This document shows, one piece after another, positions 2,521-61,056 of a stretch of 64,000 nucleotides of DNA. Each line of letters begins with the position of its first letter. Within the stretch, counting starts at the first letter, position 1. The translations under genes and the position numbers were made by a program. The stretch lies in sequence record OQ561750; one strand, given 5' to 3'. The notes beneath the pieces were generated by a model. It did no database searches, was not told where the DNA came from, and worked only from the letters and a program-made list of their open reading frames with translations. This stretch comes from Escherichia phage LHE83.

Positions 2521-2879
2521 TGCATCTGTGTTTTGATATCGATAATACCATTACTCACTGGCAAGATGACCGTGATTACGAAAACTTTAAACCGGACACC
2601 GAAATGGTGTCCATGATTAATAAGCTTTATGATGAAGGGTACGAGATTACCTTGTTCACTGCCCGTGGTATGACTTCATGCGGCCCGGGTCGAATCTTGG
2701 TTGAAGTAGTTCCTGCATTAGTTAAGAACCTTGAAAAGATTGGATTGAAATATCACAATCTGCTTACACATAAGCCGAGTTATACTTTTATCATCGATGA
2801 CCGAGCAATCCGTCCTGACCACTTTAAAGAAATGGTTCGTGAAGGAACTCTTGAAACCTATAAGGCATATCATCCGTGA
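2520..2879 (+). CDS. HAD-superfamily phosphatase (small, capless type)
   Basis: Motif I FDIDNTIT near N-terminus, downstream T/K/DD motifs; TAATG overlap with previous gene (alternative start 2505). Confidence 0.7.
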   Translation: MHLCFDIDNTITHWQDDRDYENFKPDTEMVSMINKLYDEGYEITLFTARGMTSCGPGRILVEVVPALVKNLEKIGLKYHNLLTHKPSYTFIIDDRAIRPDHFKEMVREGTLETYKAYHP

Positions 2880-3412
2880 AACCAAAAATCATTGTTATCG
2901 ACGGCCCGGATAATTCCGGGAAGTCTACTTTAATTGAATCACTTTTATCTGATAAGAAATATCGTCTTATTGATTTCCCTAAAAAGATTAATGGCAAATG
3001 CATTTCATTAGGGACCGATAATGACAAGGCTTTAGTCGAGACGTTGTATAAGTTTTTAGACCCTAATTTCGTTTACATCCTTGACCGTGGTTATCCAAGT
3101 AATATTGTTTACTCGGGATTCCTTCGCGGTGAAATGGACCCTTATGTAGAACTGGAAGATTGGAAAAGGTTTAAATCTGAATTCAATATTATTGAGGTTA
3201 TTTTAACCCGTAATCCACTGGATAAAGACTTTGAAGATGACCTTATTAAATTAACCAAAGATGAGTTCAACCTAACTATCCGGCAATATGAAACATGTTT
3301 TGAAAACGTGTTTAAAATCTTAAATCACGACGGCCATAATAACTTGCTTAACGTCGATATGGTAGAATTAAAACGTCTGAATGAATATATTGAAAATAAG
3401 GTGAATAAATGA
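2876..3412 (+). CDS. thymidylate-kinase-like P-loop nucleotide kinase
   Basis: Walker A IVIDGPDNSGKST and DRGYPSNIVYSG resembling Tmk P-loop and DRxxxS..AYQG motifs; GTG start overlapping upstream stop (GTGA). Confidence 0.65.
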   Translation: MKPKIIVIDGPDNSGKSTLIESLLSDKKYRLIDFPKKINGKCISLGTDNDKALVETLYKFLDPNFVYILDRGYPSNIVYSGFLRGEMDPYVELEDWKRFKSEFNIIEVILTRNPLDKDFEDDLIKLTKDEFNLTIRQYETCFENVFKILNHDGHNNLLNVDMVELKRLNEYIENKVNK

Positions 3413-28587: not shown

Positions 28588-28850
28588 ATATCAAATTATA
28601 TTACGCTAAACACAAAGTTACGGGTACGGTTGTTGCCGCCATGTATGACGCGTCAGGTGATGGTGACGATATTACTACAGAGTTATCTCTTTCTGAATGT
28701 AAATTTCTCCGTCCTTTAATCGCATCAAAGGAAGATTTACAAAAACTTATCGATGGAAAACTGGATAATGTTGATGGCATAGATATTCTTTATGACCTTC
28801 GCACTGCATTGTACAGAGGATTGATTGAAATTAAAGAGGTAGTATTTTGA
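28584..28850 (+). CDS. hypothetical protein, small paralog 2
   Basis: GTG start, SD GAGGTGG; KLYYAKHKVT...LIDGKLDN. Confidence 0.55.
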   Translation: MNIKLYYAKHKVTGTVVAAMYDASGDGDDITTELSLSECKFLRPLIASKEDLQKLIDGKLDNVDGIDILYDLRTALYRGLIEIKEVVF

Positions 28851-28995
28851 GTAGCAAAATGTGGTGCCTTATTTGGTTGACCTGTATCCCAGTGATTTGC
28901 GTATGTTTTAGTTTATTGTTGTGAAAATTGGCATAAAACAGTGTACATCTCCATTAATCATGATATTATAGACCTATCAACTAATGGAGATGATT

Positions 28996-29106
28996 ATGAA
29001 AAACTTACTTAAAGCAATTTGGAACATGTTTGTGTTGTTAATGGTATTGAGCATTTTCCCAATCGTTTTTATGATTGACCATGTACGTGTATTCTTTAAT
29101 TTCTGA
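28996..29106 (+). CDS. small membrane peptide (36 aa)
   Basis: SD GGAGA; hydrophobic core; preceded by GTTTAC promoter. Confidence 0.5.
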   Translation: MKNLLKAIWNMFVLLMVLSIFPIVFMIDHVRVFFNF

Positions 29107-29116
29107 GGAAAATATT

Positions 29117-29329
29117 ATGAAACTTTTTAAAGATGTCGCAGTTGGTGAGAGCTTTGTATTACATAACGGCCAACAACTGATTCGCATTTCTCCTTTGCAA
29201 GTTGGTACTGAATTACAACCTGTTAATGCCACAGACCTTTATGATTCAACTAAGCGTTTTTGTGTAGGCCCTAGTGTGCAATGCCTTACTGTTGATGAAC
29301 TGATGGCTATTTCTGTTGACGCTGAATAA
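29117..29329 (+). CDS. hypothetical protein
   Basis: SD GAGGA. Confidence 0.5.
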   Translation: MKLFKDVAVGESFVLHNGQQLIRISPLQVGTELQPVNATDLYDSTKRFCVGPSVQCLTVDELMAISVDAE

Positions 29330-29339
29330 GGAAAATATT

Positions 29340-29684
29340 ATGTCTAAATTATTTTTTGGTAATCGCAACATTATGTTCTTTAAACAACTCAGCCTCCAAG
29401 ATGCATCGGTGGCATTCAATCAAAGTATGATTCCCGGTGTAGATTCAAAAATTATGACGAGTGCTGATTTCGTTTTCGTTCAAGACCCAGAAACAGGCTT
29501 TTATCGGTTCATTAAATTTCGTATGAGTATGGACCCAGGTTATCATAGTGCTTACTACGTGAGTTATGAAAACGTTATCAAAGAATTACGTGATACCTAT
29601 GGACGCGCTTTGAACCCGCTGAACAAGGTTTATAATGCTTCTTTTTATACGAGCGGATTTATTTTAGAACAGCTACAAAAATAG
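29340..29684 (+). CDS. hypothetical protein
   Basis: SD AAGGA. Confidence 0.5.
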   Translation: MSKLFFGNRNIMFFKQLSLQDASVAFNQSMIPGVDSKIMTSADFVFVQDPETGFYRFIKFRMSMDPGYHSAYYVSYENVIKELRDTYGRALNPLNKVYNASFYTSGFILEQLQK

Positions 29685-29712
29685 TTTACAACCTCGAGAA
29701 TCGTGTTATAAT
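29684..29712 (+). promoter_or_regulatory. early promoter (GTTTAC, 17 bp, TGtTATAAT) with flanking inverted repeat CGAGAA/TTCTCG
   Basis: Hexamers and spacing. Confidence 0.7.
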
Positions 29713-29761
29713 GGTTCTCGTTGACTGGATAACAAAACATTAATCTACTGAGGAAATTGAT

Positions 29762-30211
29762 ATGAATACTTATATGACTCGCCGTAACGTTCTGTCTGCT
29801 GGTGCTACTACTGTTGCTTATGTTAAGAACGGTGAATACCAAAATGGTAAACCTTCTAAAGAAATCTCTGCTCAGCCAGGCTTCTACTTCTTTGTTAAAG
29901 GTGGTGCTGATTCTCGTGTCGTAGCGGCTCGTTTTTATGTCGGTAATCAACGTTCGGCCCAAGGGCTCGACGGTATCGTGGCTAACATTCGTAAGAAACG
30001 TTCTCAATCAGCTCGCACTATGGCAGTGAACGGTGTTGTGTATGAAGTTCTTTATGTACCGGCTTCTAAGATGAAACCCCTGACTACAGGTTTTGGTAAG
30101 GGTCAAATTGCAATGGCTTTCACTCGTAATCATAGTTCCGACCTCCAGACACTGGAAGAAATGAACCGTATGTTGGCTGATAACTTTAAATTCATCCTGC
30201 AGGCTTACTAA
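29762..30211 (+). CDS. ndd: nucleoid disruption protein Ndd-like
   Basis: Size/position and C-terminus ...[17 protein letters not shown] resembling T4 Ndd by recollection. Confidence 0.6.
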
Positions 30212-30288
30212 TGAGTAATTTCCATAACGAGCATGTGATGCAGTTCTATCGTAACAATCTTAAAACTAAAGGCGTCTTCGGACGCTAA
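30211..30288 (+). CDS. stp: Stp peptide (25 aa)
   Basis: [25 protein letters not shown] matches T4 Stp by recollection; TAATG overlap with ndd. Confidence 0.8.
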
Positions 30289-30298
30289 TGAGGAAAAT

Positions 30299-30460
30299 AT
30301 GGTTATCCTAGTTTTTATTGAACTTATTATGGCTATAGTCTGTTCAGTTTGCTTCTTTTTAGGTGTGTGGGCCCCTCGTCCGATATTCTTAAGTTTTCTG
30401 CTTATTGGTTGGGTTCTTTCTACTTTTGTCGGTTTACTTAAGACGATTAAAAATGATTAA
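30299..30460 (+). CDS. small membrane protein (53 aa)
   Basis: SD AGGA; two hydrophobic segments; ac-region of T4 map. Confidence 0.5.
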   Translation: MVILVFIELIMAIVCSVCFFLGVWAPRPIFLSFLLIGWVLSTFVGLLKTIKND

Positions 30461-30593
30461 TAAAATCCTGGGCTACTCGTTAGCCCTTGCTGCTTTATTA
30501 GTAGCGCTGTATTACGGAGTAATGTTCGGACTTATCCAAGTTGTGCTTTTTATTTCCGATGTTATTATGGCTATTCATTCACTAGTATGGTAA
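30453..30593 (+). CDS. small membrane protein (46 aa)
   Basis: Hydrophobic ORF immediately upstream of gene 52. Confidence 0.45.
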   Translation: MINKILGYSLALAALLVALYYGVMFGLIQVVLFISDVIMAIHSLVW

Positions 30594-30597
30594 AATT

Positions 30598-31977
30598 ATG
30601 GCTGATGTAATTGATACCCTTTTTAAACAGGCTTTAGATGTTTACGATGATTCTTTCACTCGTCGTGACTTAAAAAGTATTATCGACAACGAAGCATTGG
30701 CTTATGCAATGTATACTGTCGAAAACCGAGCCATTCCAAATATGATTGATGGCTTTAAACCTGTACAACGTTTTGTAGTGGCTCGTTGTCTTGATATGGC
30801 TCGTGGTAATAAAGAAAAATTCCACAAACTGGCTTCTATCGCTGGTGGTGTAGCCGACCTCGGATATCACCACGGTGAAGGTTCTGCTCAGGAAGCAGGG
30901 GCTTTGATGGCTAACACATGGAACAACAACTATCCATTGTTAGACGGTCAAGGTAACTTCGGTTCTCGATTGGTTCAAAAGGCTGCAGCCTCTCGTTATA
31001 TTTTTGCTCGTATCGGAAGTAACTTTGCAAAAGTTTATAAGGACACAGAATATGCTCCGGTTCATGCGGATGTCGAACATAAGCCACCGGCTTTTTATCT
31101 GCCTATTATTCCTACTGTTCTTCTTAATGGCGTTTCCGGTATTGCAACTGGTTATGCAACTAATATTCTTCCTCATAGTTTTGATTCTGTTAAGAAAGCT
31201 GTACTGCAAGTTCTTCAGGAAAAACGAGTAACCAAACCCAAAGTGGCTTATCCTGAATTCCGTGGTGAAGTTGTTGAGATTGAACCTGGTAGTTATGAGA
31301 TTCGTGGAACGTATAAGTTCACATCCCGAACCCAAATGCATATCACGGAAATCCCATACAAATACGACCGTGAAACATATGTGGCTAAGGTATTAGACCC
31401 TCTGGAAGACAAAGGGTATATCACATATGATGATGACTGTGACGAGAACGGTTTTGGCTTCAAGGTTAAGATTCGTAAAGAATACGAATTGCCTACCGAA
31501 GAAAACAAGAAGCATGAAAAAATCATGAAGGACTTCGGGTTAATCGAACGTCGTTCACAAAACCTGACCGTCATTAATGAAAAAGGTAAACTTAAGGTTT
31601 ACGAAGATGCAGTTGAACTGATTCGTGATTTCGTTGAGGTCCGTAAGACCTTTGTACAAAAACGTATTGATGGTAAAATCATCGAAACCGAAGAAGCTTT
31701 TAAACTAGCATTGGCTAAAGCCACATTCATCAAAGATGTTATTGACGGGACTGTAGTTATCCAAGGTAAGACTCGTAAGGTTTTAACTGAGGAATTGGCT
31801 GGTAATAAAGTCTACGGCGAATACGCTGATAAACTGGTTGCAATGAACATTTTCCATATCACATCCGATGAAGCCAAGAAACTGGCCCTCGAAGCCAAGG
31901 CTAAGAAAGAAGAGCATCAATACTGGAAATCTACTGATGTGGTAACTGAGTATGTTAAAGATTTGGAGGCTCTATGA
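30598..31977 (+). CDS. 52: topoisomerase II medium subunit gp52 (GyrA-like)
   Basis: 459 aa; N-terminus and active-site region resemble T4 gp52. Confidence 0.9.
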   Translation: MADVIDTLFKQALDVYDDSFTRRDLKSIIDNEALAYAMYTVENRAIPNMIDGFKPVQRFVVARCLDMARGNKEKFHKLASIAGGVADLGYHHGEGSAQEAGALMANTWNNNYPLLDGQGNFGSRLVQKAAASRYIFARIGSNFAKVYKDTEYAPVHADVEHKPPAFYLPIIPTVLLNGVSGIATGYATNILPHSFDSVKKAVLQVLQEKRVTKPKVAYPEFRGEVVEIEPGSYEIRGTYKFTSRTQMHITEIPYKYDRETYVAKVLDPLEDKGYITYDDDCDENGFGFKVKIRKEYELPTEENKKHEKIMKDFGLIERRSQNLTVINEKGKLKVYEDAVELIRDFVEVRKTFVQKRIDGKIIETEEAFKLALAKATFIKDVIDGTVVIQGKTRKVLTEELAGNKVYGEYADKLVAMNIFHITSDEAKKLALEAKAKKEEHQYWKSTDVVTEYVKDLEAL

Positions 31978-32078
31978 GCCTTGGAGTCGAGTTCTTGTTA
32001 CTCTGTATCTTTGCTGTTATTCTGGGCCTGGCGACAGGCTTAGCTATAGGTTTAATAGCAGCTCACTTTAAAAAGTAA
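31974..32078 (+). CDS. small membrane peptide (34 aa)
   Basis: SD GGAGG; ATGA overlap with gene 52 stop; followed directly by terminator. Confidence 0.5.
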   Translation: MSLGVEFLLLCIFAVILGLATGLAIGLIAAHFKK

Positions 32079-32100
32079 GGAACCTTCGGGTTCCTTTTTT
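32079..32100 (+). terminator. intrinsic terminator (GGAACC-UUCG-GGUUCC + U6)
   Basis: Identical to the terminator at 12110. Confidence 0.85.
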
Positions 32101-32117
32101 GGTTTAGTGAAAAAAGT

Positions 32118-32146
32118 GTTTACTTCTGCTTTAAACATGATACTAT
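32118..32146 (+). promoter_or_regulatory. early promoter (GTTTAC, 17 bp, TGaTACTAT) upstream of motA
   Basis: Hexamers/spacing. Confidence 0.7.
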
Positions 32147-51029: not shown

Positions 51030-52712
<1,683 letters not shown>

Positions 52713-52840
52713 AAATTCAAATAATCTGTACTCTGTTTTTGGTTATTATGGTCGGACTGAATTTCATTCTATAAATATCAGTCCATGCTTAACAGGTTCT
52801 ATGATAGAATAATTGTAGAACCTAACACATTGAGGAAATT

Positions 52841-59057: not shown

Positions 59058-59398
59058 GTATTTACCTTTTAGCTGGAGCCATTGCAGTAGGTGCTTACGG
59101 TTTTATTTCGTATCAATCAAGTCGTATTGATACCCTTACTGAAGAACTGAAAACTACCCAGCAAACGGCAAAACAGAACGCTGAAGCTGTAGAGGACCTT
59201 CGTGGTCAATACTCTGATATTGAATTCCGTACTACTGAAATGAATGCCCTAATGGATAAAATTAAGGTAGAAAATGAAAAGCTCCGTAAAGATTCGAAGA
59301 AGGCGCACGTGGTGGCAAGTAAGCCAGGACTGGTCGAAAAACAAATCAACAAGTCCTTCGATTCCTTTACAGAAGACTTCAGGAGCATTACAGAATGA
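59045..59398 (+). CDS. i-spanin (Rz-like inner membrane spanin)
   Basis: N-terminal TM helix + coiled-coil; followed by lipoprotein gene with overlapping start (T4 pseT.3/pseT.2 arrangement). Confidence 0.65.
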   Translation: MSKLSIYLLAGAIAVGAYGFISYQSSRIDTLTEELKTTQQTAKQNAEAVEDLRGQYSDIEFRTTEMNALMDKIKVENEKLRKDSKKAHVVASKPGLVEKQINKSFDSFTEDFRSITE

Positions 59399-59685
59399 TT
59401 AAATTATCTGTAGTAGTATTATCTATTGGCTTGTTAGTTGGATGTGCTCAGGAGCTTCCTGTAGTGCCTAAGCAACAACTACATCCTTCATGGCCACAAC
59501 CTATTGCCGAACATAATGTTAAATGGCAGGTTAAGGTAATCGATGGTAAAGCTTGGGTTGGGATGCCGTTTGAAGACTCCCAAGAACATCGTATTTGGTT
59601 GAATGACGTAAAAAGATATGTACAAGACCAGAAATCTATGTTATGTTATTATCGTTCCGGTCTAAAAGAGGAGAAGTGCAAATGA
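59395..59685 (+). CDS. o-spanin (Rz1-like outer membrane lipoprotein)
   Basis: Lipobox LVGC; Pro-rich N-terminal region; ATGA-coupled to i-spanin. Confidence 0.65.
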   Translation: MIKLSVVVLSIGLLVGCAQELPVVPKQQLHPSWPQPIAEHNVKWQVKVIDGKAWVGMPFEDSQEHRIWLNDVKRYVQDQKSMLCYYRSGLKEEKCK

Positions 59686-59789
59686 TTGAGACATGTGTTT
59701 GCGGTTGGGATGCCGTTAGATTTGGCGCTGCATTCTTTTGTTTTGGGATTGTGTTCAGCATGTGTATGCATGGTCTTTTCGGAAAGTAG
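59682..59789 (+). CDS. small membrane peptide (35 aa)
   Basis: SD GAGGAG; ATGA overlap with o-spanin stop; Cys-rich hydrophobic. Confidence 0.45.
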   Translation: MIETCVCGWDAVRFGAAFFCFGIVFSMCMHGLFGK

Positions 59790-59852
59790 TTTACAAACTC
59801 TTGGGAGCAGAGTATAATGCTCCTACGGATTATAAAAATTGAGGAAATTATT

Positions 59853-61056
<1,204 letters not shown>

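Follow-up and report, generated by a model that had tools for sequence, protein, structure and literature searches.

T4 has three clusters of genes for predicted membrane proteins, one of which includes ac, and an action of its product, Ac, on the AcrAB-TolC efflux pump has been proposed (bioRxiv 10.1101/2025.06.30.662393). The T4 homologues of the small genes considered here are early transcripts whose proteins were undetected by mass spectrometry (PMC9697503 Table S2), and they were scored 'Not Fit' on knockdown, gene 52 being scored 'Fit' (PMC11879866 supplement). PeSL elements have been described, and ndd.4 and ndd.5 are swapped via PeSL (PMC4122927). Our literature search on T4 ribosome profiling of small proteins returned nothing relevant, and these genes are unmentioned in PMC2993671 and the HIDEN-SEQ preprint.

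The window analysed here, a stretch of 64,000 nucleotides from record OQ561750 (Escherichia phage LHE83), belongs to a Dhakavirus-type T-even phage. An earlier note on this DNA had picked out five short ORFs for hydrophobic peptides, whose coordinates and lengths were confirmed, as were the start/stop overlaps and the terminator described with them. When the whole 64 kb was scanned on the coding strand for intergenic mini-ORFs that are hydrophobic and have a ribosome-binding site, only six credible ones emerged, namely these five and the ORF at 28847-28924. Judged from their sequences, all six are very probably ordinary, catalogued accessory genes of T4-type phages, coding for peptides of 25-53 residues with one or two predicted transmembrane helices. 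The five listed ORFs already count among the known small early genes that T4-like phages carry (ndd.4, 52.1 and neighbours). The six ORFs and their surroundings are arranged as follows.

28847..28924, plus strand: Ndd.6 homologue, 25 aa (phrog_8851, E=2e-14; 48% identity to T4 Ndd.6)
28942..28969, plus strand: early sigma-70-type promoter-like site 5' of ndd.4 (TGTACA-16-TATTAT, extended -10 TG)
28996..29106, plus strand: Ndd.4 orthologue, 36 aa (61% identity to T4 Ndd.4, E=3e-16)
30211..30288, plus strand: stp, 25 aa, non-hydrophobic, given for context (25/25 residues identical to T4 Stp; PF08133, E=2e-20)
30299..30460, plus strand: 53-aa 'GxWxP' peptide with two predicted helices (phrog_9347, E=5e-26)
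30453..30593, plus strand: gp52.1 orthologue, 46 aa, predicted two-helix hairpin (96% identity to T4 gp52.1; phrog_3595)
30598..31977, plus strand: gene 52, topoisomerase II medium subunit, given for context as the operon anchor (so annotated in all relatives)
31974..32078, plus strand: 34-aa peptide, predicted single-pass (phrog_16377, E=2e-21)
32077..32102, plus strand: intrinsic terminator (8-bp stem at 32077-32096, UUCG loop, T-run; folding z = -3.4)
32118..32146, plus strand: early promoter-like site for motA (GTTTAC...TACTAT)
59395..59685, plus strand: o-spanin, T4 PseT.2 homologue, given for context (Rz-like spanin in relatives' annotation)
59682..59789, plus strand: 35-aa Cys-rich hydrophobic peptide (phrog_23289, E=1.5e-15)
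59790..59818, plus strand: early promoter-like site directly after the 35-aa ORF (TTTACA-17-TATAAT, read from sequence)

All five listed ORFs were matched by full-length PHROG families and 52.1 by a Pfam family as well; the matches to phrog_9347, phrog_16377, phrog_23289 and phrog_8851 extended over the full length of peptide and profile, or nearly so, while a search of NCBIfam with the peptides gave no meaningful match. The ORFs had been described as invisible to standard ORF calling, which does not hold: ndd.2-ndd.6, ac, 52.1 and motA.1 have been annotated in the T4 reference for decades, E33 and MX01 carry all four main-region ORFs as CDSs, and the 35-aa ORF is ORF227 in RefSeq WG01. The related statement that a 60-aa cutoff had missed them needs an exception for 52.1, of which a TTG-extended 62-aa version (30405-30593) was present in the ORF list. 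Annotation of the small genes is inconsistent. T4 and many, though not all, of the related GenBank records carry them as annotated genes; the 53-, 34- or 35-aa ORF is left out in JS10, JS98, IME08, Bp7 and others. Since PHROGs, Pfam and GenBank already contain the ORFs, the discovery value is small, and one practical use is annotation hygiene, as several Dhakavirus records are without the 53-, 34- and 35-aa genes.

Good Shine-Dalgarno sequences, which the earlier note had ascribed to the ORFs in general, were found for four of the five: GGAG 6 nt upstream of the ORF at 28996, GAGG 5 nt upstream of that at 30299, GGAGG 4 nt upstream of that at 31974 and AGAGGAG 8 nt upstream of that at 59682. 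The ORF at 30453 is without a Shine-Dalgarno sequence and shares 8 nt (ATGATTAA) with the ORF before it. Translational coupling is tight in two units, one running from the 53-aa ORF through 52.1, gene 52 and the 34-aa ORF to the terminator, the other from the i-spanin through the o-spanin to the 35-aa ORF. Four nucleotides separate the end of 52.1 (30593) from the start of gene 52 (30598). The proposed ATGA couplings of the 34-aa ORF, the last gene of the operon, to the gene 52 stop and of the 35-aa ORF to the o-spanin stop are both present, and the terminator directly follows the 34-aa ORF, its stem beginning within the stop codon of that ORF. Sigma-70-type early promoter-like sites lie near the small genes, and the terminator and the motA promoter-like site together form a PeSL-type terminator/promoter unit.

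As the sign of a membrane peptide we took a hydrophobic stretch of 19 residues or more exceeding a Kyte-Doolittle threshold of 1.6; the peptides have such a stretch, with 19-residue maxima ranging from 1.84 to 2.91. The hydropathy fits one predicted transmembrane helix in the 36-, 34- and 35-aa ORFs and two in the 53- and 46-aa ORFs. These hydrophobic mini-ORFs are more than chance would give: of short ORFs taken arbitrarily from the DNA of the window, only 16% pass the hydrophobicity threshold. The dN/dS ratio was 0.15-0.26 in five of the six ORFs, equal to that of the flanking genes (0.10-0.28); alternative frames gave pN/pS values of ~0.6-1.5. Within Dhakavirus, the 53-aa ORF had a dN/dS of 0.56 at a pS of 0.07 with 17 variable codons, one alternative frame being lower, and in more divergent, informative subclades it had values of 0.09-0.29. 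Informative sequence comparisons (dN/dS 0.09-0.29) thus indicate purifying selection on the protein sequence of all six. Starts and stops were intact in every close relative carrying the ORFs. The check that the earlier note had proposed, conservation of the reading frames and Ka/Ks in relatives, therefore turned out favourably, and its view of the ORFs as genuine conserved genes of the early region of T-even phages, for peptides predicted to cross the membrane once or twice, is upheld.

These data also bear on the idea that the reading frames stand open merely by chance, the intergenic DNA being AT-rich, or that translation alone matters, for example by modulating a terminator, with the peptides being irrelevant. 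A random short ORF of the window does look hydrophobic in about 16% of cases, the stop of the 34-aa ORF lies within the terminator stem, which a terminating ribosome could mask, and the T4 proteome study left the homologues undetected. However, purifying selection is specific to the annotated frames, the excess of T in the ORFs is confined to codon position 2 (0.43-0.67 versus 0.30 genome-wide), homologues are kept across genera at 30-60% identity, and of nine independent families with coupling to gene 52, seven are hydrophobic (P ~8e-5). Tiny hydrophobic peptides are, moreover, expected to evade tryptic LC-MS. We therefore regard an origin by chance, or a role of translation alone, as scarcely credible and treat the six ORFs as protein-coding genes.

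The Ndd.4 orthologue lies on the early strand, between denB and ndd by gene order. It is matched by phrog_3098 over residues 1-36 (E=3.6e-21) and predicted to be single-pass, with K2 and K6 at the N-terminus and a helix at approximately residues 7-27; its dN/dS is 0.17, and E33, MX01 and JS10 annotate the product as 'Ndd.4 predicted inner membrane'. The MK(N/K)LLK start is conserved in relatives. A 40-aa version starting at 28984 was rejected, as it is without a Shine-Dalgarno sequence and leaves a leader of only ~7 nt after the promoter. The TTG start of the Ndd.6 homologue overlaps the stop of the upstream ORF (TTGA), the peptide has one predicted hydrophobic helix, and the last 4 residues of the relatives' Ndd.6 are absent from the copy in the window; dN/dS is 0.18 (14 sequences). 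This Ndd.6-type ORF (28847-28924) had been missing from the earlier list. The T4 homologues ndd.4 and ndd.6 are early transcripts.

The 53-aa ORF follows stp, the product of which is an activator of the host PrrC anticodon nuclease, and members of its GxWxP family were found in 76 phage records from Escherichia, Enterobacter, Edwardsiella and Kosakonia phages. A hint at ac in the earlier note did not hold up, as the gene found at the ac position is a member of another family and the window is without an Ac-type gene; with five Ac-type peptides as tblastn queries, no match in the window had an E value below 0.036. That the 53-aa ORF is this phage's ac, the acridine sensitivity determinant, diverged past easy recognition, appears very unlikely. 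It does share the slot between stp and 52.1 with ac, is of similar size (53 versus 51 aa), and has the same 8-nt overlap with 52.1 (the T4 ac/52.1 overlap is exactly like that in the window), the same C-terminal ND and the same two-helix hydropathy. However, the common ND is a necessary consequence of overlapping the conserved start of 52.1, and the two proteins fall into different PHROGs (phrog_9347 for the 53-aa ORF, phrog_2501 for T4 Ac), with a blastp E value of 0.07 and a probability of 0.4% in hhalign between the families. The Ac motif S/T-V-x-S/Q-Q-x-L/V-A/S-Q is absent from the 53-aa ORF, and GxWxP is absent from Ac. In L017 and Dhakavirus NC-G, Ac-type and GxWxP-type genes are adjacent and thus lack the mutual exclusivity expected of orthologues. 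At the level of sequence, orthology of the 53-aa ORF with ac is refuted, while the two might still be analogous in function. The Dhakavirus ORF in the ac position should consequently not be called ac, and this phage, having no Ac-type gene, would be predicted to be acriflavine-insensitive, unlike T4.

Next to it, gp52.1 matches Pfam DUF7396 (PF24129) with 78 bits at a cut-off of 27 over model positions 1-46 of 46. The gene lies directly 5' of gene 52 in most related loci with a detected 52.1 homologue and has a dN/dS of 0.15 at a pS of 0.42. Behind gene 52, the 34-aa peptide carries a GxxxGxxxG motif (G18, G22, G26) and a C-terminal KK; its dN/dS is 0.26, and a DNA search found the ORF in 54 phage records at 90% nucleotide identity or more. 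It is unrelated in sequence to T4 MotA.1, the families being different (phrog_16377 versus phrog_3487, hhalign 1.1%).

Across the T4 superfamily, a small hydrophobic ORF overlaps the gene 52 stop in 34 of 47 loci, and these ORFs derive from at least seven unrelated sequence families, whereas only 3 of the 73 long genes of the window have a hydrophobic follower. Gene 52 might accordingly form a module with ultra-conserved gp52.1 ahead and a hydrophobic, stop-overlapping ORF plus terminator behind, in which selection would favour the presence of a membrane helix produced along with gp52, whatever its sequence; we consider such a module unlikely. If it existed, it could point, for example, to membrane anchoring of the topoisomerase/replication complex or to ribosome-dependent control of read-through into motA. 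A related proposal, that the peptides flanking gene 52 are functional topoisomerase partners and, for instance, tether the topoisomerase or the replication complex to the inner membrane, seems to us quite improbable. The frequency of hydrophobic followers at gene 52 would suit it, as would the organisation of 52.1, gene 52 and the mini-ORF as one tightly coupled translational unit ending in a terminator and the higher conservation to T4 of gp52.1 (96%) than of gp52 (81%). Against this, knockdown of T4 52.1 or motA.1 caused no fitness defect while that of gene 52 did, such an ORF is absent at gene 52 in 13 of 47 loci, and the other topoisomerase subunit genes of the window are without a hydrophobic follower. 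Adjacency to gene 52 may just mark spots of cassette insertion in a hyperplastic region. With its conserved position and turnover of sequence families, the gene 52 neighbourhood could guide work on the role of these widespread phage micro-proteins.

The 35-aa ORF after the o-spanin was found at full length in 86 phage records with 57-100% identity, and its dN/dS was 0.20 compared with ~1.1 in the other frames. An alternative-frame ORF at 59686-59817 was dropped on dN/dS. T4 PseT.1 was likewise rejected as a homologue of the 35-aa ORF, since it occupies the same slot but is soluble and without similarity.

As to function, the earlier note had suggested superinfection exclusion or resistance. 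Membrane-acting exclusion or anti-defence factors would suit early expression and a location in the membrane, which are both inferred here, and accessory, lineage-variable genes of T4 hyperplastic regions often serve host adaptation (PMC4122927). No peptide, however, matched an exclusion or anti-defence family in PHROGs, Pfam or NCBIfam; the PHROG matches of five peptides are labelled 'unknown function' and the Ndd.6-type family only 'outer membrane protein'. The known exclusion genes of T4, imm and sp, sit elsewhere in its genome. Such a role is therefore improbable in our view.

We hypothesize instead that transcription of the six accessory genes, like that of their T4 counterparts, falls within the first minutes of infection, and that their small peptides would insert into the host inner membrane and there modulate larger complexes of membrane proteins or the physiology of the envelope. 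The modulator role is proposed by analogy with Ac, the only characterised neighbour, and with bacterial small membrane proteins; the sequences hold no feature tying any of the six peptides to a specific target. The genes may be dispensable in laboratory hosts and relevant only in particular hosts or conditions. The make-up of the families probably differs between genera by cassette exchange at PeSL terminator/promoter units, which would have placed a GxWxP peptide in the T4 Ac slot and a different peptide in the MotA.1 slot.

Compared with T4, the two ndd genes resemble ndd.4 and ndd.6 in their position between denB and ndd, in size and in their single hydrophobic helix. The start of ndd.4 in the window is 4-6 codons shorter than in the T4 annotation, the shorter start having the Shine-Dalgarno sequence; ndd.6 has a TTG start and is truncated by 4 residues, and T4 ndd.2, ndd.2a, ndd.3 and ndd.5 are absent from the window. 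T4 gp52.1 is 96% identical to the gp52.1 of the window and likewise has 46 aa; its gene stands in the same place before gene 52, with the same kind of overlap by the ORF ahead of it, and nothing material differs. T4 Ac and the 53-aa ORF agree in slot, length class, 52.1 overlap and two-helix profile but belong to unrelated sequence families. Both T4 MotA.1 and the 34-aa ORF have an ATGA overlap with the gene 52 stop, are Gly-rich and hydrophobic, and have a terminator and the early promoter of motA behind them; MotA.1, however, has 49 aa compared with 34 aa and one predicted helix here, and the sequences are without detectable relationship. Outside the phages, AcrZ, MgrB and MgtS are bacterial small membrane-protein regulators that bind larger membrane proteins. 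The phage peptides are similar to them in size, in having one or two predicted transmembrane helices and in having no other domain, but share no sequence similarity with them.

The short hydrophobic ORFs that the earlier note had picked out of the LHE83 sequence are real genes, and the observation is correct. All five were recovered at the claimed coordinates and lengths when the ORFs were re-examined (28996-29106, 36 aa; 30299-30460, 53 aa; 30453-30593, 46 aa; 31974-32078, 34 aa; 59682-59789, 35 aa), and hydropathy gives a single helix in each of the 36-, 34- and 35-aa ORFs and a pair in each of the 53- and 46-aa ORFs, in agreement with the proposed single- or double-pass membrane peptides. 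The "good" Shine-Dalgarno sequences ascribed to them are present in four ORFs but not in the 46-aa ORF (52.1), whose first 8 nt are shared with the ORF before it, an arrangement identical in T4. From 28.9 to 32.2 kb the window is 93-97% identical to Dhakavirus phages (Tevenvirinae), including E33, C6, IME08, JS10, MX01 and WG01, and the T4 early-region order is kept on the + strand: denB side, then ndd.6, ndd.4, ndd.1, an extra ORF, ndd, stp, the 53-aa ORF, 52.1, 52, the 34-aa ORF, a terminator and motA. The fifth ORF lies ~29 kb beyond the other four, 3' of the spanin pair pseT.3/pseT.2 and 5' of pseT. Three promoter features belong to this setting:

28942-28969, + strand, sigma-70-type early promoter-like site
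29685-29712, sigma-70-type early promoter-like site
59790-59818, + strand, early promoter-like site TTTACA-17-TATAAT, covering the ATG of the ORF at 59817-60152

The true start of the 111-aa ORF listed at 59817-60152 is probably 59853 (MKELLENY), which gives 99 aa, matching the WG01 and ST0 annotation.

The small ORFs exceed chance by several independent counts. Only ~16% of arbitrary short ORFs in window DNA reach the hydrophobicity threshold, and the T excess in the mini-ORFs is confined to codon position 2. Across the 64 kb, a census left no more than six credible hydrophobic mini-ORFs that are intergenic and have a ribosome-binding site on the coding strand, namely the five above and a 25-aa TTG-start ORF at 28847-28924. 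The earlier note had named frame conservation and Ka/Ks as checks, and both favour the ORFs: start and stop are intact in relatives wherever a close homologue exists, and pooled Nei-Gojobori dN/dS is 0.18 for ndd.6, 0.17 for ndd.4, 0.15 for 52.1, 0.26 for the 34-aa ORF and 0.20 for the 35-aa ORF, with 0.10-0.28 in flanking genes and pN/pS of ~0.6-1.5 in the two alternative frames. The 53-aa ORF gave an uninformative 0.56 within Dhakavirus (17 variable codons), and 0.29, 0.24 and 0.09 in three more divergent subclades versus 0.8-3.9 out of frame.

The 36-aa ORF is the Ndd.4 orthologue (61% to T4; phrog_3098), and 30453-30593 encodes gp52.1 (96% to T4; Pfam DUF7396, 78 bits against a cut-off of 27). 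The 34- and 35-aa ORFs match phrog_16377 and phrog_23289, respectively, and 86 records hold the 35-aa ORF at full length (57-100% identity). T4 PseT.1 shares its coupled slot but is soluble and unrelated in sequence. The ORF at 28847-28924 encodes Ndd.6 (phrog_8851), a sixth small hydrophobic gene absent from the original list; its TTG start overlaps the upstream stop (TTGA), and a TGG->TGA change has removed the final four residues of relatives, WKLA. Stp (30211-30288; 25 aa), which activates the host anticodon nuclease PrrC, matches its T4 counterpart at all 25 residues (100%), and both Stp and gp52.1 (96%) are more conserved relative to T4 than essential gp52 (81%).

The suggestion that this region includes ac is wrong for this phage. 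The 53-aa ORF, which occupies the ac slot between stp and 52.1, matches phrog_9347 end to end, a family in which an invariant G-[VA]-W-x-P turn joins two helices (GxWxP) and which is found in 76 phage records, among them Enterobacter, Edwardsiella and Kosakonia phages. Profile-profile comparison with the Ac family (T4 Ac, phrog_2501) gave 0.4% probability. Decisively, Ac-type and GxWxP-type genes lie adjacent in a related locus (L017) and in Dhakavirus NC-G, in whose record the Ac-type gene bears the depositor's label 'acridine resistance'. The C-terminal 'ND' common to the 53-aa ORF and Ac is there because overlap with the conserved 52.1 start forces it, and no Ac-type sequence was found anywhere in the window (best tblastn E = 0.036). 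At codon 28 of the 53-aa ORF (30380-30382), the loop that is invariantly G-V-W-x-P-G in the family carries a private G28R. The top database matches all stand at 98.1% identity, one mismatch away, and the substitution may be genuine or may come from a sequencing error. The 34-aa ORF is likewise not MotA.1 (phrog_3487; 1.1% in profile-profile comparison).

The claimed ATGA overlaps of the 34-aa ORF with gene 52 and of the 35-aa ORF with the o-spanin gene are real, as is the terminator directly after the former, with an 8-bp stem, a UUCG loop and the ORF's stop codon within it. An early promoter-like site for motA comes next, and the two together make up a PeSL-type terminator/promoter unit (PMC4122927). 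Across the T4 superfamily, 47 gp52-anchored loci were compared, and in 34 of them a hydrophobic ORF of 23-77 aa begins at the gene 52 stop or only a few bases away from it; in the window such a follower stands behind only 3 of 73 long genes. These followers form at least seven clusters with no significant profile similarity between clusters, and seven of nine independent families are hydrophobic (P ~8e-5 versus the 16% base rate). A terminator-like hairpin lies directly 3' in 18 of the 34, and an early-promoter-like site within 160 nt in most. One possible reason is that the site is permissive for cassette insertion; another is that selection favours co-translation of a membrane helix with gp52. 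In several lineages (the window at 32076-32096, T4, and RB69-like and Gaprivervirus-like loci), the stop codon of the coupled ORF is in the terminator stem or no more than 5 nt from it, and a ribosome that terminates there could thus cover the hairpin and alter read-through into motA.

Elsewhere, a hydrophobic 21-aa ORF (52709-52774) is ATGA-coupled to the stop of the thymidylate synthase gene td (51855-52712), just 5' of nrdA; an NCBIfam search returned no match. NC-G (MK310184; locus positions ~1527-2045) has an additional cassette between ndd and the 53-aa-type ORF, made up of a further hydrophobic ORF of 57 aa, a duplicate stp, the Ac-type 49-aa gene and a scar in which the 52.1 5' end is fused to stp, an arrangement suggesting that repeated stp/52.1 segments have recombined. 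In vB_EcoM_005, a 155-kb relative, 52.1 is mostly deleted and its remnant fused to the 53-aa-type ORF (~2831-3000 of locus L036), a loss compatible with a dispensable 52.1, unless it is an assembly error.

The ORFs had been called invisible to standard ORF calling, a claim that is only partly true. Several Dhakavirus-type records do omit some of them, at least one of the 53-, 34- and 35-aa ORFs being absent from JS10, JS98, IME08, Bp7, AnYang and other records, but all four main-region ORFs are annotated in E33 and MX01, the 35-aa ORF in RefSeq WG01, and ndd.2-ndd.6, ac, 52.1 and motA.1 in the T4 reference. They were missed only in the sense that annotation is patchy; all are ordinary genes, already catalogued, from known families.

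The T4 homologues are early transcripts whose proteins went undetected by LC-MS (PMC9697503 Table S2), and dCas13d knockdown of T4 motA.1, 52.1, ac, stp and ndd.1-ndd.6 caused no fitness defect, while that of gene 52 did (PMC11879866 supplement). In phage PST other ORFs replace ndd.4/ndd.5, which was ascribed to PeSL-mediated recombination (PMC4122927). We hypothesize here that the LHE83 genes would be expressed early, as in T4, from the promoter-like sites at 28942-28969 and 29685-29712 and from promoters upstream. Given the overlaps, translation would be coupled in the units 53 aa-52.1-52-34 aa and pseT.3-pseT.2-35 aa, and hydropathy and flanking charges suggest insertion of the peptides into the inner membrane. 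T4 Ac renders infection acriflavine-sensitive, with AcrAB-TolC as its proposed target, and a recent preprint, citing the T4 genome review, places ac in one of three predicted membrane-protein gene clusters (bioRxiv 10.1101/2025.06.30.662393). On the model of Ac and of small membrane proteins in bacteria, the peptides may act as modulators of larger membrane complexes or of envelope physiology, with relevance only in some hosts or conditions.
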